From the UHGV virus genome UHGV-0055581: a stretch of DNA of 40,858 nt. One strand, written 5' to 3'. Of the stretch, positions 11,054 to 40,282 are shown one piece after another. Both the position numbers and the translations under genes were made by a program. Source of the DNA: a virus. Each line of letters starts with the position of its first letter. The first letter of the stretch is position 1. The notes under the pieces are model-generated. The model searched no databases. It was not told the origin of the DNA and saw only the letters and a list, made by a program, of their open reading frames with translations.

Positions 11054-12479
11054 TTTTTATGCGCCGCCCCATAGCATCGAGGCAGAGCAGGCGGTGATTG
11101 GTGGATTGCTTCTGGATGATGACAGCAGTGAGCGCGTCCGGAAAGTCCTGGCGATGCTGAAGCCTGATTCATTTTACAGCCGACCACACAAAATCATTTT
11201 CGAAGAAATAACCAGAATGCACCGTGAGCAAAAGCCAGTAGATGGCCTGACGCTTTTCGATGAACTGGAGCGTAAATCGTTAACGGTGTCTGTTGGCGGT
11301 TTTGCTTATATCGCTGAGATCGCAAAGAACACGCCAAGCGCAGCAAACATCGTTGCCTATGCAATGCAGGTTCGTGAAACCGCAATGGAACGCTACGCCA
11401 TCAACCGCATGACTGAAGCGACGGAATTGCTCTATTCCCGCAACGGAATGACTGCAACGCAGAAGTACGAAGCTATTCAGTCGATTTTCACGCAACTGAC
11501 AGACCATGCAAAAACCGGATCGCGTCGCGGCCTTCGCTCATTTGGTGAGGTCATGGAAGACTGGGTTAGCGACCTTGAGAAGCGATTTGACCCGTCAGGC
11601 GAACAACGAGGAATGAGCACAGGGATCCCATCGCTGGACAGGATGCTGTCACCGAAAGGCCTGGTGAAAGGCTCTCTGTTTGTCATTGGCGCTCGCCCTA
11701 AGATGGGGAAAACGACGCTATACAGCCAGATGGCAATCAACTGCGCAGTGCATGAGAAAAAGCCCGCTCTGATGTTCAGCCTTGAAATGCCCGGTGACCA
11801 GATACTGGAAAAACTGGTAGGACAGAAGTCAGGTGTTAACCCGAATATTTTTTACCTTCCGGCGACAAATGACGCTGATGACGGCTATCAGGGTGATTAC
11901 GATGGTGACTTCAACAGGGCGATCGAAACAGCCAATCGCTTGAGTGAAATCGACCTGCTTTACATCGACGACACGCCGGGATTATCTCTGTCTCAAATCG
12001 TCAGCGAAAGCCGTCGAATCAAGCGAGAAAAAGGATGTGTTGGCATGATTCTGGTCGATTACCTGACACTAATGACCGCTGAAAAGGCCGATCGCAACGA
12101 CCTTGCTTACGGCATGATCACCAAAGGACTGAAGAACCTTGCCAAAGAGCTTGATTGCGTTGTTGTGCTTCTGACACAGCTTAACCGCGCACTGGAAAGC
12201 CGAACCAATAAACGCCCATTGCCAAGTGACTCACGAGATACAGGGCAGATTGAACAGGATTGCGATTATTGGGTGGGGATCCATCGTGAAGGTGCTTTTG
12301 ATGACAGTGTTCCACCTGGTGAAACCGAACTAATCCTTCGCCTCAATCGTCATGGCAATACCGGCACGGTGTATTGCATTCAGGCAAATGGCGCTATTTA
12401 TGACACAGACCAACAGTCTGCTGAAATGCGCCGCCGTGAACGCGAGGAACCGCAGTCCAAGAAGAAAGGAGGATTCTGA
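11043..12479 (+). CDS. Replicative DNA helicase, DnaB family (P22 gene 12-like)
   Basis: N-terminal DnaB-type domain (HSIEAEQAVIGGLLLDDD), Walker A GARPKMGKTT, Walker B-like ILVDYL; ATG at 11043 with GAGGG RBS preferred over the GTG at 11028. Confidence 0.9.
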   Translation: MTDNFYAPPHSIEAEQAVIGGLLLDDDSSERVRKVLAMLKPDSFYSRPHKIIFEEITRMHREQKPVDGLTLFDELERKSLTVSVGGFAYIAEIAKNTPSAANIVAYAMQVRETAMERYAINRMTEATELLYSRNGMTATQKYEAIQSIFTQLTDHAKTGSRRGLRSFGEVMEDWVSDLEKRFDPSGEQRGMSTGIPSLDRMLSPKGLVKGSLFVIGARPKMGKTTLYSQMAINCAVHEKKPALMFSLEMPGDQILEKLVGQKSGVNPNIFYLPATNDADDGYQGDYDGDFNRAIETANRLSEIDLLYIDDTPGLSLSQIVSESRRIKREKGCVGMILVDYLTLMTAEKADRNDLAYGMITKGLKNLAKELDCVVVLLTQLNRALESRTNKRPLPSDSRDTGQIEQDCDYWVGIHREGAFDDSVPPGETELILRLNRHGNTGTVYCIQANGAIYDTDQQSAEMRRREREEPQSKKKGGF

Positions 12480-12507
12480 TGACCATCTACATCACTGAGC
12501 TAATAAC

Positions 12508-12539
12508 AGGCCTGCTGGTAATCGCAGGCCTTTTTATTT
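12508..12539 (+). terminator. Rho-independent terminator after the helicase gene
   Basis: AGGCCTGC-loop-GCAGGCCT hairpin followed by TTTTTATTT. Confidence 0.65.
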
Positions 12540-12566
12540 GGGGGAGAGTAAATCGTGGCTGAGTTT

Positions 12567-12761
12567 ATGCTCGTCGCATTCAAATGCGTTGGCGTTGGAT
12601 GGATTCTTCTGACGTTTTTTATTGTTCTGCATAGCTACATTCGTCTTGTGAATGACGGTAAAGACCCATGGTATACGTTGTTTGGCGCTGCATTTGTCTG
12701 GGTGATTATCGGTGTTATGCCTGTTGTCGTAGCAAAAATGGCGTGGCGTTTTGTGAGTTGA
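12567..12761 (+). CDS. Small membrane protein (nin region)
   Basis: Two hydrophobic segments; start ambiguous (GTG 12555 or ATG 12567). Confidence 0.45.
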   Translation: MLVAFKCVGVGWILLTFFIVLHSYIRLVNDGKDPWYTLFGAAFVWVIIGVMPVVVAKMAWRFVS

Positions 12762-12778
12762 ACTGAGGGTAAGTATCG

Positions 12779-13063
12779 ATGGACGAATCAAGAAAGCAGT
12801 TTGAAGAAAGTTGGTTGCGACGTGGAGGCGAATCATCAGACCTTATCCGTTACCCTGAAAATCACCATGAAATTGGCAGTGGTGATATTGGTGGTCAATA
12901 CGTGATGGACGATGTTCAAGGCCACTGGAAAACGTGGCAGGCATCGCGAGCAGCTATTGAAATTGAGTTGCCTGTATGGTTTGTCAGTGATGCTATTGCT
13001 GTGTACGACCGTGACGATATCGATGAATCCATCCGCGCCGCTGGAATCAAAGTGAAGGAGTGA
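12779..13063 (+). CDS. Hypothetical protein (94 aa, nin region)
   Basis: ORF with typical operon packing. Confidence 0.5.
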   Translation: MDESRKQFEESWLRRGGESSDLIRYPENHHEIGSGDIGGQYVMDDVQGHWKTWQASRAAIEIELPVWFVSDAIAVYDRDDIDESIRAAGIKVKE

Positions 13064-13065
13064 GT

Positions 13066-13251
13066 ATGAGTCGACGAAGTAGCTTTTTGGGGTTTGTAAT
13101 ATTCCTGTTCTGCACTGGTTACATCGTAATCTGGTCAATTTCGAACATTGACCGTGGCGGGGAATATCTCATTGTAATGTTCTTTCCTTTGTTTCTTGGG
13201 TGGTACGCCGCAAGGTTGCTGGAAGAATGGGGTTACAGGCATAAAAAATAA
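13066..13251 (+). CDS. Small membrane protein (61 aa)
   Basis: AAGGAG RBS 5 nt upstream of ATG; hydrophobic segments. Confidence 0.5.
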   Translation: MSRRSSFLGFVIFLFCTGYIVIWSISNIDRGGEYLIVMFFPLFLGWYAARLLEEWGYRHKK

Positions 13252-13262
13252 AGGAGTATTCA

Positions 13263-13673
13263 GTGAAGCAAACAATCTTCCTCCGAACTAAGCAACAACA
13301 GCAAGCTGCAATAAATGCCATCCTCGCAACACCACTCGATAAAGACAAGCCAGTCACAATCCGCATTACTGACTACAAGCGCAACCTTGACCAGAACGCA
13401 AAATTTCACGCGATGCTGGCGGATATCGCACGTCAGGTTCAATGGTGCGATAAATGGTTAAAACCAGAACAATGGAAGGTTTTGTTGATAAGCGGTCATG
13501 CAGTGGCGACAAAGCAGGAAGCTGATGTTTTGCCCGGGCTTGAAGGCGAATACGTCAACATTCGTGAGAGCAGCGCACAGATGAGCGTGAAGCGTATGGC
13601 AAGTCTGATTGAGTACACGACAGCATGGGCTATTGGTAAGGGTGTCAGATTTACCGACAGGAGGTACGAATGA
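13263..13673 (+). CDS. ninB: NinB (Orf-family recombination mediator)
   Basis: 136 aa; [19 protein letters not shown] resembles lambda NinB DQNRKLWACLGDVSRQVEW by recollection; GTG start with AGGAG RBS. Confidence 0.8.
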
Positions 13674-13846
13674 GACGACAGCGACGAAGTATCACCGACA
13701 TCATCTGCGAAAACTGCAAATACCTTCCAACGAAGCGCTCCAGAAATAAACGCAAGCCAATCCCAAAAGAATCTGACGTAAAAACCTTCAACTACACGGC
13801 TCACCTGTGGGATATCCGGTGGCTAAGACATCGTGCGAGGAAATGA
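13670..13846 (+). CDS. ninE: NinE-like protein
   Basis: 58 aa [30 protein letters not shown]...; ATGA overlap with the ninB stop; matches lambda NinE by recollection. Confidence 0.65.
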
Positions 13847-14250
13847 CAATGCTTTTAATTCAACCTGGATTTGGACTTAGCATCAAAAAAGGCCACATGT
13901 TTGGCGAGAAAGAGTCACAACGAAAAATGGTGTCTATCCGGTTGCCATTTATCAGTATTTATTGGCTAAACAGGGAGGCAACAAATTATTGGTATACATG
14001 CGCCAGAGCAGCATTTAACGACCCTGACTGGTTTGTGAAAAACCACCACGCAGTTCGTCAGGCAAAGAGAAAGGCCAACATGACATACATGAAGGCGTAT
14101 CAAAAAGCATGGAAAGAACACCGCGATCGATACCAACAAGACATGGAAAAGCTTGAATCAGAAAACATGGAATTAAGACGAAAGCTTGGTGAAGCAAAAC
14201 GAGACATTGATGCTTACAAGCGACTTTTTAATGGTGAAAGCCATGCTTAG
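13843..14250 (+). CDS. Hypothetical protein (135 aa, nin region)
   Basis: ATG overlapping the ninE stop (ATGA); basic/coiled-coil C-terminus; no family recognised. Confidence 0.45.
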
Positions 14251-14419
14251 CCCATCCCAATCCCTTCAATACCAGAAAGAAAGCGTCGAGCGGGCTTTAA
14301 CGTGCGCTAACTGCGGCCAGAAGCTGCATGTGCTGGAAGTTCACGTGTGTGAGCACTGCTGCGCAGAACTGATGAGCGATCCGAATAGCTCAATGTACGA
14401 GGAAGAAGACGATGAATGA
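14243..14419 (+). CDS. ninF: NinF-like protein
   Basis: [51 protein letters not shown] matches lambda NinF by recollection. Confidence 0.75.
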   Translation: MLSPSQSLQYQKESVERALTCANCGQKLHVLEVHVCEHCCAELMSDPNSSMYEEEDDE

Positions 14420-15134
14420 GTTAATAAATGGCAATGCCATCAAAATGACAAGCATTGAAATCGCTGAGTTGGTGGGAAGTCGTCCAGATAACGTAAAAAT
14501 ATCAATAGAGCGCCTTGCTAAATCTGGAGTTATTCAACTTCCTGCATTGCAGGTTTTCGAAAAAATCAATAACTTAGGACTGCGCCGTAGTGTCGAGGCT
14601 TACGTCTTCGAAGGCGAACAAGGTAAGCGCGACAGCATTATTGTCGTTGCCCAGTTGTCGCCGGAATTCACCGCTCGTCTTGTTGACCGTTGGCGAGAGC
14701 TTGAAGAAGCTGCGGTTAATATCCCCAAAACGCTACCAGAAGCGTTGCGCCTTGCTGCTGATCTTGCTGAGCAGAAAATGCAACTGGAAAACCAGCTCGC
14801 AATTGCCGCACCTAAAGTTGAGTTTGCCGATCGCGTTGGCGAGGCCAGTGGAATTTTGATTGGAAACTTTGCAAAGGTTGTTGGAATTGGTCCAAACAAA
14901 CTGTTTGCGTGGATGCGCGATCACAAAATCCTTATTGCTTCAGGTTCCCGGCGCAATGTGCCAATGCAGGAATATATGGATCGCGGCTATTTCACAGTGA
15001 AAGAAACAGCAGTCAATACAAATCACGGAATACAGATATCGTTCACCACAAAAATCACCGGGCGTGGTCAACAGTGGCTGACCAGAAAGCTGCTCGATAA
15101 CGGAATGCTGAAAGTAACAGGGGAGGCTGCTTAA
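14412..15134 (+). CDS. Phage regulatory/antirepressor-like protein (Rha or P22_AR_N-like N-terminus, KilAC-like C-terminus)
   Basis: 240 aa; N-terminal MTSIEIAELVGSRPDNV motif and C-terminal ...GIGPNKLFAWMRDHKIL... resemble antirepressor/KilAC domains (recollection, moderate). Confidence 0.55.
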   Translation: MNELINGNAIKMTSIEIAELVGSRPDNVKISIERLAKSGVIQLPALQVFEKINNLGLRRSVEAYVFEGEQGKRDSIIVVAQLSPEFTARLVDRWRELEEAAVNIPKTLPEALRLAADLAEQKMQLENQLAIAAPKVEFADRVGEASGILIGNFAKVVGIGPNKLFAWMRDHKILIASGSRRNVPMQEYMDRGYFTVKETAVNTNHGIQISFTTKITGRGQQWLTRKLLDNGMLKVTGEAA

Positions 15135-15424
15135 TGGCTAACCTACGCAAAGAAGCTCGCGGCAGAGAATGCCAGGTACGTATTTACGGCATATGCAATG
15201 GCAATCCTGAAACTACAGTTCTGGCACATTACCGGATGGCTGGAATTTGCGGAACTGGAATGAAGCCTGATGACCTGATCGGCGCATGGGCTTGTAGCGC
15301 GTGTCACGATGAAATCGACCGACGCACCCATAATCTCGACAACAAAGACGCCAGACTTTACCACCTCGAAGGCGTGATCAGGACGCAGGCGATACTGCTG
15401 AAGGAGGGGAAGATTAAGCCATGA
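15134..15424 (+). CDS. NinX-like protein (DUF1364-type, Cys-rich)
   Basis: 96 aa; position between nin genes and rusA as in P22-like nin regions; several Cys/His. Confidence 0.55.
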   Translation: MANLRKEARGRECQVRIYGICNGNPETTVLAHYRMAGICGTGMKPDDLIGAWACSACHDEIDRRTHNLDNKDARLYHLEGVIRTQAILLKEGKIKP

Positions 15425-15783
15425 ACGAATATCAGTTTGTGCTTCCTTACCCGCCGTCGGTGAATACCTACTGGCGAAGACGGGGAAGCCAATACTACAT
15501 CAGCGATAAAGGCCAGAAATACCGAAAAGACGTTCAGCAAATCATCCGCCAACTCAAGTTAGACATTTTCACCAAATCACGACTCCGCATCAAAGTCATC
15601 GCAGACGTTCCAGACTCCCGCCGCCGCGACCTCGATAACATCCTGAAGGGCTTACTCGACTCCCTTATCCACGCCGGGTTTGCGGAAGATGACGAGCAAT
15701 TCGATGACATTCGCGTAATTCGTGGCGTGAAAGTACCAGGCGGAAGGCTTGGAATAAAAATCACCGAACTGGAGAACGCATGA
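15421..15783 (+). CDS. rusA: RusA-family Holliday junction resolvase
   Basis: 120 aa; YPPSVNTYW...DLDNILKGLLDSL motifs are typical of RusA. Confidence 0.85.
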   Translation: MNEYQFVLPYPPSVNTYWRRRGSQYYISDKGQKYRKDVQQIIRQLKLDIFTKSRLRIKVIADVPDSRRRDLDNILKGLLDSLIHAGFAEDDEQFDDIRVIRGVKVPGGRLGIKITELENA

Positions 15784-15968
15784 ACGCCACAATTCAAACG
15801 ATACCAGAGCTTCTTATCCAGACACGAGGCAATCAGACCGAAGTGGCGAGGATGCTTTCCTGCGCAAGAGGAACAGTGCTCAAGTACAACCGAGACAGCA
15901 AAGGCGAGCGTCACGTAATAGTTAACGGCGTCCTGATGGTCAAACAGGGCAAGAGGGGTAGACCATGA
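15780..15968 (+). CDS. ninH: NinH-like protein
   Basis: 62 aa; TIPELLIQTRGNQTEVARMLSCARGTVLKY resembles lambda NinH by recollection. Confidence 0.7.
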   Translation: MNATIQTIPELLIQTRGNQTEVARMLSCARGTVLKYNRDSKGERHVIVNGVLMVKQGKRGRP

Positions 15969-16588
15969 GACTCGAAAGTGTAGCTAAATTTCATTCGCCA
16001 AAAAGCCCGATGATGAGCGACTCACCACGGGCCACGGCTTCTGACTCTCTTTCCGGTACTGATGTGATGGCTGCTATGGGGATGGCGCAATCACAAGCCG
16101 GATTTGGAATGGCTGCATTCTGTGGTAAGCACGAACTCAGCCAGAACGACAAACAAAAGGCTATCAACTATCTGATGCAATTTGCACACAAGGTATCGGG
16201 GAAATACCGTGGTGTGGCAAAGCTCGAAGGAAATACTAAGGCAAAGGTACTGCAAGTGCTCGCAACATTCGCTTATGCGGATTATTGCCGTAGTGCCGCG
16301 ACGCCGGGGGCAAGATGCAGAGATTGCCACGGTACAGGCCGCGCGGTTGATATAGCAAAAACAGAGCAGTGGGGGAGAGTTGTTGAGAAAGAGTGCGGAA
16401 GATGCAAAGGTGTCGGCTATTCAAGGATGCCAGCAAGCGCCGCATATCGCGCTGTAACGATGCTAATCCCAAACCTTACTCAACCCACCTGGTCACGCAC
16501 TGTTAAGCCGCTGTATGACGCTCTGGTGGTTCAATGCCACAAGGAAGAGTCAATCGCAGACAACATTTTGAACGCGGTCACACGTTAG
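15965..16588 (+). CDS. Q: Late-gene antiterminator Q
   Basis: 207 aa; MRLESVAKFHSPKSPMMSDSPRATASDSLSGTDVMAAMGMAQSQAGFGMAAFCGKHELSQ... matches lambda Q by recollection. Confidence 0.95.
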   Translation: MRLESVAKFHSPKSPMMSDSPRATASDSLSGTDVMAAMGMAQSQAGFGMAAFCGKHELSQNDKQKAINYLMQFAHKVSGKYRGVAKLEGNTKAKVLQVLATFAYADYCRSAATPGARCRDCHGTGRAVDIAKTEQWGRVVEKECGRCKGVGYSRMPASAAYRAVTMLIPNLTQPTWSRTVKPLYDALVVQCHKEESIADNILNAVTR

Positions 16589-16630
16589 CAGCATGATTGC
16601 CACGGATGGCAACATATTAACGGCATGATA

Positions 16631-16700
16631 TTGACTTTTTGAATAAAGTTGGGTAAATTTGACCCAACGATGGGTTAATTCGCTCGTTGTGGTAGTGAGA
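16631..16700 (+). promoter_or_regulatory. Late promoter PR' with qut site
   Basis: TTGACT -35 and downstream sequence correspond to the lambda PR'/qut region as recalled. Confidence 0.7.
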
Positions 16701-16800
16701 TAAAAAGAGGCGGCGCTTACTACCGATTCCGCCTAGTTGGTCACTTCGACGTATCGTCTGGAACTCCAACCATCGCAGGCTGAGAGGTCTGCAAAATGCA

Positions 16801-16860
16801 ATCCCGAAACAGTTCGCAGGTAATAGTTAGAGCCTGCATAACGGTTTCGTGATTTTTTAT
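16801..16860 (+). terminator. tR' terminator (end of the short lambda 6S-type late leader transcript)
   Basis: ATCCCGAAAC...GTTTCGTGAT hairpin followed by TTTTTTAT, matching lambda tR' with one stem mismatch. Confidence 0.75.
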
Positions 16861-17410
16861 ATCTGCACAACAGGTAAGAGCATTAAAGAACTGGCAAAGA
16901 GCTTAACGGTCTGCGAAAGCATTTCTTAGTGGCACAACTGGCCGGTACAACTGAGTGCTCTTTCCGGTGTGGTGAATGCGCAGGCTGATGCGCGCAGGAG
17001 AGCTTCGGAAGAACAAGGTGCCTGTATACAAGCCGGAGATCAGCGCCGGCCACCACAGCCAAATCCACCCAGAGCAAAACCGTTGTTCATCCTTACCATT
17101 CCCTCAGTATTTTGGGCTACAACCCTCAGCCCATTTTTTAAAGCGTACTTCCACCAAGAACCAGACCTAACCAACTCATTGCTGACACTCTGTGGATACG
17201 GTTGTCTAGTGCGCTTTAAAAAAGAAAACCCAGCATCAATGGCTGGGCTTCGTGATATGAGCGGCATGTATTGTTGGCGCAATCCACGCCTGATTTGCTC
17301 ATGAATGCGGTCACGAACAAACCCGTTACAAATCAACCGTAACCCGGATTTGTTCAAGCGACCATATCTATAATTCCTAATTTGAACAGATCCCCTTCTG
17401 GGGGTAAGAC

Positions 17411-17734
17411 ATGAAGATGCCAGAAAAACATGACCTGTTAGCCGCCATTCTCGCGGCAAAGGAACAAGGCATCGGGGCAATCCTTGCGTTTGCAATGGCG
17501 TACCTTCGCGGCAGATATAATGGCGGTGCGTTTACAAAAACAGTAATCGACGCAACGATGTGCGCCATTATCGCCTGGTTCATTCGTGACCTTCTCGACT
17601 TCGCCGGACTAAGTAGCAATCTCGCTTATATAACGAGCGTGTTCATCGGCTACATCGGTACTGACTCGATTGGTTCGCTTATCAAACGCTTCGCTGCTAA
17701 AAAAGCCGGAGTAGAAGATGGTGGAAATCAATAA
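17411..17734 (+). CDS. S: Holin/antiholin S (dual start Met1-Lys2-Met3)
   Basis: [70 protein letters not shown]... matches lambda S by recollection. Confidence 0.95.
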
Positions 17735-18194
17735 TCAACGTAAGGCGTTCCTCGATATGCTGGCGTGGTCAGAAGGAACAGATAACGGACGGCAGAAAAC
17801 CAGAAATCACGGTTATGATGTTATTGTCGGTGGCGAGCTGTTCACTGATTACTCCGATCACCCCCGCAAACTTGTCACGCTAAATCCGAAACTCAAATCA
17901 ACAGCCGCCGGACGTTACCAGCTTCTTTCCCGTTGGTGGGATGCCTATCGTAAGCAGCTTGGCCTGAAAGACTTCTCTCCGAAAAGCCAGGACGCTGTGG
18001 CACTGCAACAGATTAAAGAGCGTGGCGCTTTACCGATGATTGATCGCGGTGATATTCGTCAGGCTATCGACCGTTGCAGCAATATCTGGGCTTCACTGCC
18101 TGGCGCTGGTTATGGTCAGTTCGAGCATAAGGCTGACAGCCTGATTGCAAAATTCAAAGAGGCTGGCGGAACGGTCAGAGAGATTGAGGTATGA
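17718..18194 (+). CDS. R: Endolysin R (lytic transglycosylase)
   Basis: [51 protein letters not shown]... matches lambda R by recollection. Confidence 0.95.
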
Positions 18195-18830: not shown

Positions 18831-19373
18831 ATGAATTATCCAACTATCGTTAACGGCATCGATTTCCGAGATCTGATTTTTGTGGCAAACAACGATCCGG
18901 TTACAGATTCTTTTATGGTGGCAAAAGCATTTGGAAAGCTGCCGAAGAACGTAGTTCGTGACATTGAACGAACCATAGAAGCTTGCCCTCCTGAGTTTGA
19001 TACAAAGCTCAACTTTGAGCTTTGCTATAAAAACAATGAGTTACAGAATGGTAAGCCGCAAAAATTCTACCGTCTCCGCAAGGATGGGTTGATGCTTTTG
19101 GTTATGTCCTACACCAAAAAAGAAGCAATGCGTATCAAAATTGCTTACATCAACGCATTCAACTGGATGTACGCCATGCTTCAGGTTGGTCATCGTCAAT
19201 TTGAAGAAGAGCGAAACGCCGTAATGCTGGAGTACATGAAAGAAAAGGATGTCGCCAGCATGTCTGGCCGTCTGCTCAATCGCTGGGGAAAAATTAAGAA
19301 GCCTCAGCTAATGGCGAGAATTGAACGCCTTGAACAGCACGGGCAAACCGTAATCCCCGGACTCACTAATTAA
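18831..19373 (+). CDS. rha: Rha-family phage regulatory protein
   Basis: 180 aa; N-terminal VTDSFMVAKAFGKLPKNVVRDIER fits the Rha-family signature (recollection). Confidence 0.7.
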   Translation: MNYPTIVNGIDFRDLIFVANNDPVTDSFMVAKAFGKLPKNVVRDIERTIEACPPEFDTKLNFELCYKNNELQNGKPQKFYRLRKDGLMLLVMSYTKKEAMRIKIAYINAFNWMYAMLQVGHRQFEEERNAVMLEYMKEKDVASMSGRLLNRWGKIKKPQLMARIERLEQHGQTVIPGLTN

Positions 19374-34605: not shown

Positions 34606-34977
34606 TTAATCATCCATGGATGGATTGAGCTTATCTCGTGTTGATGTGGCGATTTGTCCTACATTCCTAAGCCAAGATTTCAAATCCTTGATATTGTCAT
34701 TGATTTCATGAATATCTTCTTTTTTTAATCTGTTAATATTATTCTCAATAATTTCAATGGATTGCTCAATATCAGATATAGTGAATGATAGTTTGTTCTT
34801 CTCATCTTTTATTGAGTTTTTAAGTGCTTCGTTCTCAGTCTTGAGGTCAGATATCTTTTGTTTTAAAGATGCCAGTTGGTACTGAACCACAATGAGTGCG
34901 ATAGCTATCACGATAACTGTTGTATACACACCAACCTCCTTAGTTTTGCGCAGGATACCAGATGAAATGGTCTTCAA
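34606..34977 (-). CDS. Membrane-anchored coiled-coil protein, candidate superinfection-exclusion factor (sieA position)
   Basis: 123 aa; N-terminal TM helix (VYTTVIVIAIALIVV) then heptad coiled coil; strongly AT-rich; TTG start overlapping the stop of the upstream Mnt-like gene; no good SD. Confidence 0.5.
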   Translation of the reverse strand: MKTISSGILRKTKEVGVYTTVIVIAIALIVVQYQLASLKQKISDLKTENEALKNSIKDEKNKLSFTISDIEQSIEIIENNINRLKKEDIHEINDNIKDLKSWLRNVGQIATSTRDKLNPSMDD

Positions 34978-35357
34978 AACTGGATGTCTTCAGCATCATC
35001 GCCAAAAACATTTTTATATGCATCTTGCCTTAAGCTCCTGAGAGCTTGATACATTTGCGAATGAGAACTGATGCTATCTAGTAAGTAGAAAATTGCTTTG
35101 ACTAGCTCATTCTCCCACCGCTCAAACTCTTCTTTGTTTGATGGCCTGTTCCCGGAGAGGTTTGAGTAAATCTTCATAATCCTGGAGTTATCAACCTCAG
35201 CAGGCACCGGAGACTTCAATGCATCATCAATGATAAACACTAGTTCTGTATTCATTGATCTGCCGTTTTCCTTTGCTCTTAAGGCTATAGCATCCCGCAT
35301 TCCTGCCGGAAGCCTGATATTGAACCTATCCATTTCATGACTAGGGAACTTGCTCAT
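34974..35357 (-). CDS. Mnt-like ribbon-helix-helix repressor with extended C-terminal domain
   Basis: 127 aa; FNIRLPAGMRDAIALRAKENGRSMNTELVFIIDDALKSPVP resembles P22 Mnt FNFRMPMEVREKLKFRAEANGRSMNSELLQIVQDALSKPSPV (recollection); divergent from arc. Confidence 0.65.
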   Translation of the reverse strand: MSKFPSHEMDRFNIRLPAGMRDAIALRAKENGRSMNTELVFIIDDALKSPVPAEVDNSRIMKIYSNLSGNRPSNKEEFERWENELVKAIFYLLDSISSHSQMYQALRSLRQDAYKNVFGDDAEDIQF

Positions 35358-35469: not shown

Positions 35470-35643
35470 ATGAAAGATGTGCTTTACACAGGTCGTAAAA
35501 GTCAAAGTTTCCAGCTTCGTTTGCCAGCGCGAATGAAGGAGGAGATTAGACGTGTTGCTGAAATGGATGGAATTTCTATCAACTCTGCGATTGTGCAGCG
35601 ACTGGCTAAAAGCCTGAGAGAGGAAAGAGCTAATGCCCAGTAA
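35470..35643 (+). CDS. arc: Arc-like ribbon-helix-helix repressor
   Basis: 57 aa; FQLRLPARMKEEIRRVAEMDGISINSAIVQRL resembles P22 Arc FNLRWPREVLDLVRKVAEENGRSVNSEIYQRV (recollection); GGAGG RBS. Confidence 0.7.
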   Translation: MKDVLYTGRKSQSFQLRLPARMKEEIRRVAEMDGISINSAIVQRLAKSLREERANAQ

Positions 35644-36343
35644 AAATAGTGAAGCCCAGCAGTGCGCGAACACAAACTGGGCCTCTATGTCAGTAACCGT
35701 ATGCAAGGAAACTAACGTGAATATTGTAGCAAAATCAGATTACAACTTCCACGGAGTTGAGTTGGTGCCCACCCGTGATATGCATGGTGTTTGGTTTACA
35801 TCATCTAATATTGCATCTGCACTTAAATACGCAAATAGTCGTGCAGTAACAATGATTTATAACAAGTATAGCGATGAGTTTAGCGCCGGAATGACTCAGG
35901 TACTCGAAGTGAGTACCTCAGGAAATTATCGCAAAAAAGTGCGAGTTTTCTCACTACGCGGTGCCCACCTAATCGCGATGTTTGCTCGCACTCCGGTAGC
36001 CAAAGAGTTCCGCCGCTGGGTGCTGGATATTTTGGATCGGCAGGCAGAATGCTCACCGATTGCAAAACAGTTTACTGACGAAGAGCTGGTTAATCTCTGC
36101 TACTTACAATTGTGGATGGAGAAGAGTCAACAAATGTGCAAACACATCTACCCAGGAATGAAGCAAATTTGTTCTGAGCTTTCAGGAAGGATTTACGATA
36201 TCGCATATGAGACTCGCTATATGTCAGAAGAAACCAAGAAATCACTTCTTCGTGAAGTGAAGAATCTTGATACCAACAATTTTGTCGTAAAGAACGCTCA
36301 GCCAATGCTGGCAAAACTGCGCGGCGAGGAATGGATTCATTGA
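35633..36343 (+). CDS. ant: Antirepressor with Bro-N-type N-terminal domain
   Basis: 236 aa; N-terminal FHGVELVPTRDMHGVWFTSSNIASALKY...VFSLRGAHLIAMFARTPVAKEFRRWVLDIL resembles the Bro-N domain (recollection); overlaps the arc 3' end as in the P22 arc-ant operon. Confidence 0.65.
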   Translation: MPSKNSEAQQCANTNWASMSVTVCKETNVNIVAKSDYNFHGVELVPTRDMHGVWFTSSNIASALKYANSRAVTMIYNKYSDEFSAGMTQVLEVSTSGNYRKKVRVFSLRGAHLIAMFARTPVAKEFRRWVLDILDRQAECSPIAKQFTDEELVNLCYLQLWMEKSQQMCKHIYPGMKQICSELSGRIYDIAYETRYMSEETKKSLLREVKNLDTNNFVVKNAQPMLAKLRGEEWIH

Positions 36344-36431
36344 TTGGTGCGCCGGACGGCGCAAAAAGAAAACCGCCAGTGTGCTGCTGGCGGCCTATGT
36401 CACACCCTTACTACCACATAAGGAATGCCTA

Positions 36432-37160
36432 ATGACTTTTAAGAATGTAGCAAACATCGGATCCGTTGTCACGGATAAAACCATTGACAGCCAGCGCCTG
36501 CTTGAGATGGTCAATCATGCTCGTAGACAGTGCGGGGAAAAAGAAGTCCGCAATAACGACTTTATTGCACGCATTAAGGATGAACTTGAAGGTGAGCACT
36601 ACGAAATTTTCGTAGTTCAAAAATCAAACAAGACAAGTTCTGAAAAAGTTGTTATGTCAATTAAGCAAGCCCTTCGAGTGGCTGCTCGTGAATCTAAAGC
36701 TGTTCGCCGCTCACTGGTAGACCAACTTGAAAGTATGCAAGAAGCGCACATTAAAAGCGGTAAATCAGCGAGTGGACTTGTTGAGTATCGTCAAGCGCGA
36801 ACATTGAAAATGACGGTTGAAGCTGTTACCAATCTGTTCGATCTGATGCCAAATCTTGCGCCTGAGGCAAAGCAGACAGCGGCAGCAAGTATAATCAACC
36901 CGCTCGTTGGTTTTAATGCAATACCTCTTCCGGCAATAGAAGAGCATTACTACTCAGCAGGGGAGGTTGCAGAGCAGCTTGGAGTAACGGCCAACAAGAT
37001 TGGTCGCATTGCTAACGCAAACAACCTCAAAACTGAGCAGTACGGGAAGTTCTTCCTGGATAAATCGGCGCATTCCAGCAAACAGGTAGAGGCGTTTCGT
37101 TACAATTCTGAAGGCGTTAAAGCACTACAACACCTGCTACATGGCTCAAATGTGGCGTAA
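36432..37160 (+). CDS. Hypothetical protein (242 aa) downstream of ant
   Basis: ATG with AAGGAA RBS; no confident family; upstream in-frame extension to 36381 is possible. Confidence 0.5.
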   Translation: MTFKNVANIGSVVTDKTIDSQRLLEMVNHARRQCGEKEVRNNDFIARIKDELEGEHYEIFVVQKSNKTSSEKVVMSIKQALRVAARESKAVRRSLVDQLESMQEAHIKSGKSASGLVEYRQARTLKMTVEAVTNLFDLMPNLAPEAKQTAAASIINPLVGFNAIPLPAIEEHYYSAGEVAEQLGVTANKIGRIANANNLKTEQYGKFFLDKSAHSSKQVEAFRYNSEGVKALQHLLHGSNVA

Positions 37161-37175
37161 CATTTTATAATGAAA

Positions 37176-37206
37176 ACTAAACCCGCTTAATCGCGGGTTT
37201 TTTCTT
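37176..37206 (+). terminator. Rho-independent terminator (possibly bidirectional)
   Basis: AACCCGC-TTAATC-GCGGGTT hairpin followed by TTTTTCTTT. Confidence 0.7.
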
Positions 37207-37444
37207 TCCTTAGAATTTCAGCCGCAACTTCTTTTACTCGTTCCGAGATTAATGAGGCCAGCCTCTCTTCTTCATCACGATACCCGCTTACAGGTGATGG
37301 TTTGGAGAGTGATTCTTCCATCGTAGCCACAATTTCGGAATTGATAGACCTGTTATTCATTTTTGCACGCTGCTTAATCTTAGCGTGCAACTCGTGTGTA
37401 AGCCTCAAGTGGAACTGCGCCTCATCGTATTTGCTGTACATCAT
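37187..37444 (-). CDS. mnt: Mnt-family repressor (second copy, P22 Mnt-like length)
   Basis: 85 aa; FHLRLTHELHAKIKQRAKMNNRSINSEIVATMEESLSKPSPVSGYRDEEERLA resembles P22 Mnt by recollection; start at the internal Met of the longer ORF. Confidence 0.7.
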   Translation of the reverse strand: MMYSKYDEAQFHLRLTHELHAKIKQRAKMNNRSINSEIVATMEESLSKPSPVSGYRDEEERLASLISERVKEVAAEILRKEKTRD

Positions 37445-37576
37445 CAATGCCTCACCAAATGGGTGGAATGGCATCGTAAAACCTACTGTACAAATCAACA
37501 ATCGTACCGTTTCGGTATGTAACAAATGCCAACCGTAGCCATGCTGCGGCGATTCCTTGTATCTGGAGCAAATTAA

Positions 37577-40282
37577 ATGACAGACATTACAGCCAATGTT
37601 GTAGTGAGCATGCCTTCGCAACTCTTCACTATGGCGCGTTCTTTTAAAGCCGTAGCTAATGGCAAAATTTATATCGGTAAAATTGACACTGACCCGGTAA
37701 ATCCTGATAACCAGATTCAGGTCTATGTTGGGAACGAAGATGGTTCTCACGTTCCTGTTGCACAGCCAATCGTCATCAATGCCGCTGGGTATCCAGTATA
37801 TAACGGACAGATTGCCAAATTCGTAACCGTGCAAGGCCATTCTATGGCTGTTTACGATGCTTATGGCACTCAGCAGTTTTATTTCCCAAATGTATTAAAA
37901 TACGATCCAGATCAGTTTGGCCCAGACTTCAAAGAGCAGTTATCTCAATCAGGAGCATACATTAATGATGATTCAAAAGGTGATGCATTAATTGGGGTAA
38001 GGCAGCCATTTACCGGGGCTGTAACTATAACTCAGCATGAAAACAATGCTCTTTTCTTAAATGTAAAACAATTCGGAGCAATTGGGGATGGGAAATATCA
38101 TCCATTATCTGAGAGGTTTTCTTCAATTTCTGAAGCAAAATCCTTATATCCTTTTGTTGACTCATTATCTCAGTCAATAGACTGGGCCGCGTGGCAAGCT
38201 GCCCTTAACACAGGAAAGGTTATTTATGGTACTGATAATGCGTATGTAATAACGGATACGTTAACACCTGTTTCTGGTGGTGGGATAATTGGTCTTGGTG
38301 TGGGCAAATGGGTCTCCGGATATACTGCAACATTTGCTCCTGATATTACCACAGGGACCACATTCCTGATGTACGGGGTAGGAAATAAAAAATATACTGT
38401 AGATTGTGTTTCTAATATGGATGTTAGTGGTGGTGTGGTTTCTAATCCATCTTCCGAAGACCCGTATACAACAACAGCACCTGCGTCATCATATGATTTA
38501 TTGGATTTTACTAACGGTGATGCTAATGGGACTACAAGAGCCACGCTTAAACCATTCTCTGCCGCAATATTGATGCCTGAGACAGGATGTGTTCGCCTTG
38601 AGAACTTTCGTGTTGTTCCATATTTCAATGGGCTGGATGGTTATAAAGACATTGCAAATACCGGTCTTGGCGATGAGTGGGATGTAGGTATTTGGTCACG
38701 TGCGTCTTTTGGCAATGAATACCGCAATTTGCAGGTGGTTGGATACTGGCGCAAGACGGCACTTTTAAAAACGAACATTCCTGTATCTGGCACGCTGGCT
38801 GCTCAGGGCGAGGATGAAAACTATTATCACTGTAGATTCCAGGGATTCAAGGGTGTTTCGATCCGCGCCAATGATGTATTCCGAATTACAGCGGTAACGT
38901 CCAGCACTATCGAAATCCCATGGTCAGCAAGCCACACCTTCGAAACGTCCGGAGTTTTAAGATCTGGAGGCAGGAATTTCACTTATTCAGGATTATCCGT
39001 ATCCGGTGATAAGTTAGTATTTACTGGAGTGTCTAACGCTTCTGAGGCAACAGTAGGTTCTACTATACGGCGAAATGACATAGATAACTTTGGTATGGCG
39101 GGAACGCAATTTTTCGATTGCTACATTACCAGCCTGTATCACCACACACATCTGCTTGCCACATCGCAATACCTGTCTCAACCATTCAGCCGACCATCAG
39201 AGTGTATGGAGGTTTCAGGGGAACCAGTTCGCGGTGTACAGGTACATGCAGGAACCATTCAGGGATGGGATGATGTTCTTATTCATCTGCATGACTGTGG
39301 AAATATGAACTTTTACAGTACATATTTCGAAAGCCAGCAAGCATATGTAACTATAAATGGTGGTAATGCTATTGGTTATGGAGCACGTATGATAGCTTCC
39401 CGGCAATCAACAAGCTCATTACCATATGCAGCAGGGAATACACGAGTGCTTAGAATGGTCGGGTGCTCTGAAGGCAATGGCGTTGACTGGGGTCCTGTAT
39501 TTAACAACTATACAGGAGGAAGATATAATTCTGGAGACGGTGTATTTAACCCCCGCGATGCATTTATAGACCATAAATCTCTTCCTGAGCAGTCAGGAGG
39601 TGAGTCAAGACTCGTATCACAAAAAGGAAATGCCAGAGTAGTATGTGGTGTTGGTAAAACTGTACTGCTTGGACCAACGTCAGGAGATTGTAATTTACAG
39701 AGTAATACCGGAAGTTTAAATATTAGAAGTGGGATAAGAGTAAGAGTCGGTCACGCTGATGGAACAGACTGGTGGTTGGCAGATGCTAATAAAATAGCTC
39801 CTGTTGATGATAATGTTAAAGCTATTGGACAGCCATCAAACAGATGCTCTGTTATCTATGCAGGAACCGGGTCAATCAATACATCAGATGAAACTCTTAA
39901 AACAAGATATGATATTCTTAATGCAGAGCGTGATGCCGCTATTGAAATAAAGTCAGTCATCTATAAATTTAAATTTAATGACTCAATTAATCACAAAGGA
40001 ATTGAGTCGTCCAGGTATCATTTTGGCGTTGGCGCTCAAACCGTAGGGGATATTCTTAGAAAGCATGGTTTAAATCTTGAGCAATATGCTTTTTGGTGTT
40101 ACGATGAATGGCCTGACGTATGGGATGAAGAGGTGATAACTGAAGAGAGCACAGATCCTGATACAGGTGAGAAAATTTATTCTCAATATAAAACAGGAGA
40201 TATGATTCTTGTAAAAAAAGCAGGAGGACGCTACGGAATTCGTTATGACGAATTGGCTATGTTTATATTAATGGCAATGTAG
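37577..40282 (+). CDS. Tailspike: P22-type head-binding N-terminal domain, divergent receptor-binding domain, C-terminal chaperone-like region
   Basis: N-terminal ~110 aa ([34 protein letters not shown]...VLKYDPDQ) match the P22 tailspike by recollection; remainder AT-rich and unrelated; C-terminus has an SDETLK motif like the cleavage-site motif of endosialidase-type chaperone domains. Confidence 0.9.

Follow-up and report, generated by a model that had tools for sequence, protein, structure and literature searches.

A Roi orthologue and a widespread, uncharacterised accessory gene in an ordinary lambdoid nin region

Positions 13843 to 15134 of virus genome UHGV-0055581 (40,858 nucleotides, hereafter the window) raise the question of whether an antirepressor-like protein with a KilAC domain and a 135-aa ORF, found where lambda has ninG-type genes, set this nin region apart from those already known. 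We find that the segment is an ordinary lambdoid nin region whose contents have already been described, because the 240-aa protein is the known Roi and the 135-aa ORF (here orf135) is a widespread uncharacterised accessory gene. At a probability of roughly 85%, orf135, ninF and roi are three co-directional, overlapping delayed-early nin genes of an HK620/P22-like lambdoid Escherichia coli prophage, with roi being the orthologue of HK022 Roi. Part of the 1,292-nt segment is matched by 1,830 of 5,426 complete E. coli genomes, and most of the 84 loci that we compared carry the same module, in the order ninB-ninE-(orf135)-ninF-roi-ybcO-rusA-ninH-Q.

All genes of the module lie on the plus strand, and consecutive nin genes in the segment have overlapping start and stop codons. 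The left edge is marked by an intrinsic-terminator-like, tR2-like hairpin (12508 to 12531, plus strand; an 8-bp stem with six GC pairs, followed by TTTTATTT), located 29 nt 3' of a DnaB-like replication gene that ends at 12479. It is followed by ninB, encoding an Orf-family recombination mediator (13263 to 13673; Pfam NinB, E = 6e-54), and ninE (13670 to 13846; Pfam NinE, E = 7e-44), whose stop codon shares the sequence ATGA with the first possible start of orf135. The gene orf135 (13843 to 14250) is followed by ninF, which encodes a small zinc-ribbon-like protein (14243 to 14419; Pfam NinF, E = 1.8e-12) and overlaps both orf135 and roi (14412 to 15134) by 8 nt. Next come a 96-aa putative nuclease of the YbcO/DUF1364 family, corresponding to HK97 gp66 (15134 to 15424; Pfam YbcO, E = 2.8e-44; phrog_131, labelled "HNH endonuclease"), the Holliday-junction resolvase gene rusA (15421 to 15783; Pfam RusA, E = 1e-16) and ninH (15780 to 15968; Pfam Phage_NinH, E = 2e-24). 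A Q-type late antiterminator gene (15965 to 16588; Pfam Antiterm, E = 1.3e-57) forms the right edge, with a promoter-like site downstream of it at 16631 to 16659. The minus-strand ORFs of the segment reach at most 102 aa, and each lies wholly within plus-strand genes. An Rfam search of positions 12000 to 18000 found no RNA families.

This layout agrees with the preliminary description as far as NinB, NinE, NinF, RusA and NinH are concerned, all of which are recovered by Pfam, and departs from it in two respects. The protein that it had called NinX, at 15134 to 15424, is YbcO/DUF1364; as a NinX it was rejected, its best match to P22 NinX having an E value of 1.9. In addition, the two ORFs of interest had been placed together between NinE/NinF and NinX, whereas the actual order is NinE, orf135, NinF, Roi and the 96-aa protein, so that ninF separates orf135 from roi and the two do not lie together between NinF and the supposed NinX. 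The presence of roi-ybcO-rusA instead of the ninG of lambda and P22 is a long-known mosaic alternative and not peculiar to this prophage, since the same layout is seen in HK97, HK022 and HK629 as well as in most of the 84 loci. RusA is a functional alternative to the NinG (Rap) of lambda and P22, and in P22 the equivalent place holds ninG.

The 240-aa product of the ORF at 14412 to 15134 is Roi, already described from HK022, HK97 and HK620. It aligns over its full length with HK022 Roi at 219 of 241 identical positions (91%; E = 1e-161), and phrog_63, a family labelled "anti-repressor Ant" in PHROGs, likewise covers it in full (E = 7e-97). The nin-region DNA is 94 to 96% identical to that of Gally, HK629, HK620, HK97 and HK022, all of which have the gene annotated as roi, and the annotation "roi" or "Roi protein" is found in HK629, HK97, HK022, HK620, mEpX1/2 and CUS-3. 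The earlier reading of this protein as having an antirepressor-type N-terminus and a KilAC-like C-terminus agrees with the domain searches. A KilAC/ANT domain spans aa 126 to 228 (14787 to 15095, plus strand; Pfam PF03374, E = 9.3e-33) and is nearly invariant between alleles. Residues 12 to 99 (14445 to 14708, plus strand) make up a Rha-like, winged-helix-type predicted DNA-binding domain, with a Phage_pRha match that is sub-threshold for this allele (E = 5e-4; 20.9 bits against a gathering cutoff of 29.9); precomputed tables record PF09669 on relatives up to 94% identical. The AlphaFold2 (AF2) model, built from a shallow input alignment (≥88% identity) and of low confidence as a whole (pLDDT 51.5), shows a strand-helix-helix-beta-hairpin arrangement at aa 10 to 70 (pLDDT 67 to 79). 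A Foldseek search with this model returned nothing significant, its few winged-helix matches not being counted as evidence, and a sequence search of the PDB gave no match. We thus predict roi to encode a two-domain protein, in which a Rha-type winged-helix DNA-binding N-terminus is joined to a conserved KilAC effector domain.

Within the N-terminal domain, aa 22 to 65 (14475 to 14606, plus strand) form a hypervariable cassette, delimited by a drop in DNA identity and predicted to comprise the recognition helix and wing. Its DNA is about 60 to 65% identical to that of HK022/HK97, as against 93 to 100% for the rest of roi, and we observe at least five allele classes among the 84 loci and database proteins, with the cassette flanked by invariant aa 1 to 21 and 66 to 98. 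The cassette also contains AATCAATAACTTA, a plus-strand match to the IHF consensus WATCAANNNNTTR at 14564 to 14576 (nt 153 to 165 of the gene); it is one of only five matches to the consensus in the window. HK022, HK97, HK629 and each of the four common alleles have an exact match at this position of the gene, and the Stx-type allele retains a one-mismatch match at nt 154 despite a different encoded peptide. Positions 14564 to 14576 are a candidate IHF site within roi, of the kind described for HK022, although constraint on the protein could account for most of the conservation, since the site coincides, in four of the five alleles, with codons for the conserved peptide INNLG/INDLG. A search of the variable cassette for allele-specific inverted or direct repeats that might serve as a Roi operator yielded no convincing candidate. 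The best of them was a direct repeat of 12 nt that the window allele carries at 14496 and at 14560; one of its copies overlaps the IHF-like site, and the repeat was set aside as unconvincing.

As to orf135, the preliminary description had listed a 135-aa ORF of unknown function, and we confirm both that the ORF is real and that Pfam and NCBIfam assign it no family. The length of 135 aa is counted from the first ATG; translation probably starts at the second, at 13849, giving 133 aa, as a GAGGA motif (13837 to 13841) precedes it by 7 nt and that methionine is where most homologues in the databases begin. An accessory early gene, it matches the profile of phrog_1511 in full (E = 1.6e-86; aa 3 to 135 against positions 1 to 133 of 133); HK629 gp54 shares 96% identity with the protein, and VT1-Sakai H0039 matches it at 100%. 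It occurs in 58 phage records and is annotated as hypothetical in every one. Across 14 distinct alleles, differences at the three codon positions number 173, 232 and 618, and this third-position excess points to a protein-coding gene that evolves under purifying selection. Taken together, orf135 is a real, widespread and uncharacterised accessory gene. It is present in 18 of the 84 roi loci, each time between ninE and ninF, and is thus an optional, swappable cassette; unrelated, functionally uncharacterised accessory genes occupy one fixed place, the ninE|ninF junction, with orf135 here and NinX in P22. The possibility that orf135 is itself P22 NinX was rejected, since BLASTP gave no alignment at E ≤ 100 and the genomic slot alone is shared.

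For orf135, Pfam, NCBIfam and PADLOC yielded nothing beyond coiled-coil noise below threshold, and a PDB sequence search gave no match. A profile search of 1.8 billion representatives recovered 61 clusters (50% identity), all of about 125 to 135 aa and none informative. In the AF2 model (pLDDT 77.8), four beta strands and a helix precede a long helix at aa 69 to 129; Foldseek found no PDB match for the model at E ≤ 0.001 and, in BFVD, only a truncated copy of the protein itself and uncharacterised proteins. Judged by this model, orf135 most likely encodes a small coiled-coil protein that forms dimers and would work through protein-protein contacts.

Roi is one of several antirepressor-labelled proteins of this phage. 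A Rha-family regulator is encoded 3' of the lysis genes (18831 to 19373, plus strand; Phage_pRha, E = 1.7e-21; ORF11CD3, E = 8e-26; TIGR02681) and is 55% identical to P22 Rha, which has the same genome position. The immI region encodes an antirepressor-family protein with Bro-N and P22_AR_C domains (35633 to 36343, plus strand; phrog_245, "anti-repressor Ant", E = 1.9e-63), with 29% identity to the C-terminal part of P22 Ant and flanked by Arc-like genes on the minus strand (34974 to 35357 and 37187 to 37840). A fourth protein with such a label lies at 36381 to 37160. Both the separate Rha and the Bro-N antirepressor had been noted before, and the tally of at least three antirepressor-like proteins, namely Roi, Rha and the Bro-N/P22_AR_C Ant, holds by domain content. 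What the earlier reading missed, while being sound in its domain description and count, is that the KilAC protein already has a name, Roi, and has been studied by experiment.

The activity reported for Roi is sequence-specific DNA binding with IHF-dependent control of lytic growth, and not antirepression (Clerget & Boccard 1996, PMID 8763934, cited in PMC3430580 and PMC4587872). Our literature searches found no functional work on Roi later than 1996. For the HK022 protein, the binding site reportedly lies inside roi itself and adjoins an IHF site, and the binding is said to be stabilised by IHF; in the absence of IHF, wild-type Roi reportedly blocks lytic growth. Transferred to the present phage, Roi would be made from the pR transcript following N-type antitermination and could assemble with IHF on the DNA of roi, upstream of Q, into a nucleoprotein complex that might limit the level or activity of Roi itself. 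The helix-and-wing cassette of aa 22 to 65 would then set allele-specific DNA recognition, and the invariant KilAC domain would contact a conserved partner.

As an alternative, Roi could be a true antirepressor, whose KilAC domain would bind and inactivate a CI-type repressor, either the CI encoded at 8625 to 9257 in the window or, in trans, that of another prophage in the same cell, and the phage would then have three or four redundant induction switches. In line with this, KilAC is also the domain of proteins that carry the annotation of P1-type antirepressor (Pfam name; PMC9043618), the PHROGs family label is "anti-repressor Ant", and Stx-type phages have an Ant gene with ORF6N and P22_AR_C domains directly upstream of roi (PMC3430580). 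Against it, however, we found no antirepression experiment in the literature, the sole functional study reporting that Roi binds DNA and inhibits lytic growth. The position of roi in the pR operon, 3' of the tR2-like terminator, furthermore implies that its expression has to wait until the resident repressor is gone. P22_AR_N/P22_AR_C, Bro-N and AntA domains are absent from Roi in Pfam, which reports ANT/KilAC and the weak pRha match only, and Arc/Mnt/sar-type control is lacking, unlike for the immI ant gene. We observe no adjacent promoter-like site or regulator gene dedicated to roi, a gene of the pR delayed-early operon that overlaps its neighbours ninF and ybcO. We consider antirepression highly improbable, and "antirepressor-like" is a description of shared domains only, for Roi as for the other proteins so labelled. 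A dual regulator resembling the Listeria protein AriS, with an N-terminus that regulates phage genes and a KilAC domain that dampens the host SOS response, probably via RecA, would tune induction among co-resident prophages. The ANT/KilAC domain of AriS inhibits SOS (Azulay et al. 2022, PMC9043618), AriS-like proteins pair KilAC with interchangeable N-termini, including pRha (PMC9043618), in an architecture like that of Roi, and a conserved target in the host would be in keeping with a near-invariant KilAC next to a variable N-terminal cassette. This evidence is from Firmicutes, though, the similarity to Roi is at the level of the domain family only, and AriS at native expression showed no detectable SOS inhibition (PMC9043618), so that we regard this role as unlikely.

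For orf135, the ninE|ninF slot could be a hotspot of accessory genes, in which case a counter-defence or host-takeover function would be conceivable. Its optional presence and the filling of the same slot by the unrelated NinX in P22 are consistent with this, as are distant homologues lying near early accessory genes for Lar-like restriction alleviation, Dam, DinI, RdgC and N6_N4 methyltransferase. The context argument is nevertheless weak, since such neighbourhoods are common to most small phage early genes, and the neighbourhoods of five distant homologues revealed no conserved partner gene. As orf135 also shows no homology to known anti-defence proteins, with PADLOC and Pfam negative, we hold this function to be unlikely. 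A bolder combination, in which the roughly 130 bp of roi at 14475 to 14606 are a self-contained specificity cassette and orf135 is, separately, a new counter-defence gene, seems to us quite improbable. If true, the cassette DNA would encode the recognition helix and wing and also hold the IHF site and perhaps the operator of Roi, so that lambdoid phages would swap protein specificity and target site as one unit, a miniature immunity-like module with five or more alleles, which would set the timing of Q expression or the cross-talk of co-resident prophages.

Returning to the Roi orthologue in an ordinary nin region, nothing in the ORFs or domain calls is new; the analysis corrects the annotation, from "antirepressor-like" to Roi and from "NinX" to YbcO, and has little weight as a discovery. 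Although about one complete E. coli genome in three contains a match to Roi, little work has been done on its mechanism since 1996, and the allelic recognition cassette with its embedded IHF site offers a concrete experimental handle.

With respect to known systems, the C-terminal half of Roi belongs to the KilAC family (PF03374) in common with P1 Ant1/KilA, whereas Roi differs from P22 Ant and P1 Ant1 in having neither P22_AR_N/C nor Bro-N domains and no dedicated Arc/Mnt/antisense control. [quoted passage not shown] The P22 nin region, ninE-ninX-ninF-ninG-ninY-ninH-ninZ-23, has the backbone genes and the ninE|ninF accessory slot in common with the window, and P22 carries rha and the immI ant at equivalent genome positions. 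It differs in having NinX, which has no similarity to orf135, in the slot, and NinG-NinY where the present phage has roi-ybcO-rusA.

Closer counterparts are HK629, in which gp54 to gp56 (hypothetical protein, NinF and Roi) give the same order ninE-orf135-ninF-roi as here, and the VT1-Sakai H0039 region, where this order is likewise found; HK629 nevertheless has a different Roi N-terminal allele and the other linker allele. In HK022 and HK97, roi is also placed between ninF and ybcO-rusA-ninH-Q, the predicted architecture, pRha-like plus KilAC, is the same as in the window Roi, and the IHF consensus is also found at nt 153 to 165 of the gene. The closest comparison is with HK022 Roi (also HK97 gp65 and HK620 Roi), to which the 240-aa protein described here is 91% identical (241 aa in HK022). 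The approximately 20 substitutions relative to HK022 Roi lie nearly all within aa 22 to 65, which belong to a different allele class here, and the DNA-binding specificity of the window Roi may therefore differ from that of HK022.

The window represents a P22/HK620-like lambdoid prophage of E. coli, with an early region that is a mosaic showing 94-97% identity to HZ41, IME10, Gally, HK633, HK022 and HK620. The 1292-nt segment under study (13843-15134) is 100% identical in E. coli DLL7555, and part of it is matched in 1830 of 5426 complete E. coli genomes. Following a terminator-like hairpin (12508-12531) that lies 3' of the DnaB-like replication gene, the plus-strand nin genes are tightly packed, with overlapping stop and start codons, in the order ninB (13263-13673), ninE (13670-13846), orf135 (the 135-aa ORF, 13843-14250), ninF (14243-14419), roi (the 240-aa ORF, 14412-15134), a gene for a 96-aa YbcO/DUF1364 protein (15134-15424), rusA (15421-15783), ninH (15780-15968) and the gene for a Q-type antiterminator (15965-16588). 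The two ORFs and the nin-region setting given in the preliminary description are confirmed, and the named assignments (ninB, ninE, ninF, ybcO, rusA, ninH, Q) are backed by strong Pfam matches; the ORFs had been placed together between NinE/NinF and NinX, but ninF separates orf135 from roi, and the 96-aa protein that was called NinX has no similarity to P22 NinX. The stretch from the tR2-like terminator to ninB holds three small plus-strand ORFs (68, 94 and 63 aa; 12555-13251) to which neither Pfam nor PADLOC assigns a family; by eye, the 68-aa and 63-aa products appear hydrophobic and membrane-like.

Homology identifies the 240-aa product as Roi: over its full length it shares 91% identity with HK022 Roi, and the gene or product is named roi, Roi protein or DNA-binding protein Roi in HK629, HK97, HK022, HK620, mEpX1/2 and CUS-3; annotated roi genes always lie between ninF and the ybcO-rusA-ninH-Q block. 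The PHROGs family phrog_63 covers the protein end to end, Pfam assigns aa 126-228 to ANT/KilAC (E = 9e-33) and gives a sub-threshold Phage_pRha match at aa 12-99, and precomputed tables place PF09669 on relatives up to 94% identical. An antirepressor-type N-terminus and a KilAC-like C-terminus, as described earlier, are therefore right as domain statements, although "antirepressor-like" overlooks that the protein has already been named and studied. Roi was described by Clerget and Boccard in 1996, a study that two later papers cite. The protein is reported to have a helix-turn-helix motif, to bind a site inside roi beside an IHF site, with binding stabilised by IHF, to resemble P1 Ant1 and KilA in its C-terminal half and, in its wild-type form, to prevent lytic growth on IHF-deficient hosts. 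To our knowledge, DNA binding is its sole demonstrated activity. Two 304-aa Roi variants carry an additional N-terminal PF25212 domain and may be ninF-roi fusions arising by frameshift in the 8-nt gene overlap.

Across 84 roi loci (80 from IMG/VR, three reference phages and the window), most of which share the same nin module, we observe that Roi is a composite, internally mosaic protein. Residues 1-21 and 66-98 are invariant and the KilAC domain is almost so; the cassette at aa 22-65 (14475-14606) is hypervariable and falls into at least five allele classes, that of the window being distinct from the HK022/HK97, HK629, commonest IMG/VR and Stx-phage classes, and aa 99-133 (14706-14810) form a linker with two alleles. 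In an AF2 model that is poor as a whole (pLDDT 51.5) and uninformative in a fold search, the variable segment spans a helix (aa 25-37) and a beta-hairpin (aa 45-69) at pLDDT 67-79, the predicted recognition helix and wing of a winged-helix-like unit. Embedded in the cassette, at 14564-14576 (nt 153-165 of roi), is one of only five matches to the IHF consensus WATCAANNNNTTR across the entire window. The match is exact and at the same gene position in every common roi allele, and the Stx-type allele has a one-mismatch match at nt 154, although the peptide there differs. This IHF-like sequence agrees with the reported intragenic IHF site; constraint at the DNA level is only suggested, since four of the five alleles encode conserved peptide where the match lies. 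The variable cassette yielded no allele-specific repeat suitable as a candidate Roi operator.

With respect to orf135, we observe a real gene, matched end to end by phrog_1511 (E = 1.6e-86), with differences by codon position of 173/232/618, concentrated at the third, among 14 distinct alleles. Its product shares 96-100% identity with hypothetical proteins of HK629, HK630, mEpX2, ECP1, VT1-Sakai and several Stx phages, 82-87% with those in Salmonella P22-like phages and 46% with that in Yersinia phage PY54. Of two in-frame ATGs, that at 13849 is more likely the start than that at 13843, because GAGGA at 13837-13841 lies 7 nt from the former and 1 nt from the latter and the second Met is the N-terminus of most homologues; annotated lengths differ between public entries, with 135 aa given for HK629 and 133 aa in the majority of NCBI records. 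The earlier statement that the ORF lacks a known function holds: Pfam, NCBIfam and PADLOC assign it no family, and nothing in the set of solved structures matches it. Its AF2 model, of usable quality (pLDDT 77.8), has four short strands, a helix, a conserved stretch and a 60-residue helix; a Foldseek search with it gave no informative neighbour. An exhaustive profile search returned only 61 clusters, all of 125-135 aa; around the distant members lie various early accessory genes, none of which is a constant partner. The gene is present in 18 of the 84 roi loci, independently of the roi allele and always in the slot between ninE and ninF; compared with HK022, its cassette replaces approximately 30 bp that run from the 3' end of ninE through the opening codons of ninF, and in P22 the unrelated NinX occupies exactly this slot.

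The identity, architecture and operon position of Roi and its conserved IHF-like site are established, and a model can be proposed. Roi would be made from the antiterminated pR transcript and would join IHF in a complex on the coding sequence of roi, upstream of Q, by which Roi level or activity would be held in check; DNA specificity would be set by the variable helix-and-wing cassette, and the invariant KilAC domain would contact a conserved partner. That partner may be a repressor, as the antirepressor label of the preliminary description implies, but roi lies late in the operon and has no dedicated control. Alternatively, the partner may be RecA/SOS, an analogy drawn from AriS of Listeria, in which SOS is inhibited by the KilAC domain; AriS-like proteins combine this domain with an N-terminus of the pRha, Bro-N or AntA/B type (PMC9043618).

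The earlier count of at least three antirepressor-like proteins stands: Rha (18831-19373; Phage_pRha and ORF11CD3), found after the lysis genes, and the immI protein (35633-36343; Bro-N and P22_AR_C) are confirmed. The label count rises to four with a second immI ORF on the plus strand (36381-37160), directly 3' of the Bro-N and P22_AR_C gene, which matches the "anti-repressor" family phrog_1726 from residue 18 (E = 2e-100) and has no Pfam hit. Only the Bro-N and P22_AR_C immI gene, with Arc-like genes on both sides, has the classical antirepressor regulatory setting. In a minus-strand 217-aa ORF (37187-37840), the Arc/Mnt-like domain is confined to aa 140-185, and the 5' portion extends across the beginning of a 901-aa ORF on the plus strand (37577-40282); the Mnt-like gene itself is probably far shorter than the listed ORF. 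Stx-type nin regions on two prophage contigs carry an antirepressor-family gene with ORF6N and P22_AR_C domains (1722-2426 and 1383-2066 on the respective contigs) immediately upstream of roi, where the window has orf135-ninF, and on the former contig hok and relE/HTH genes lie just upstream. The placement of Ant upstream of Roi is also remarked on in PMC3430580.

The preliminary description is thus accurate, but what it describes is ordinary: roi is a known gene in its standard place, and orf135 is a conserved hypothetical gene, likewise known, occupying a mosaic slot that is also known. Its remaining value lies in Roi's recognition cassette, which is allelic and has an IHF-like site embedded in it, and in the uncharacterised orf135 family. 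The roi-ybcO-rusA block in place of lambda/P22 ninG is the familiar HK97/HK022-type arrangement. P22 has Ant and a Rha in the same place, 55% identical to that of the window, and HK620-type phages have Roi, so that the combination of antirepressor labels is a normal mosaic outcome.
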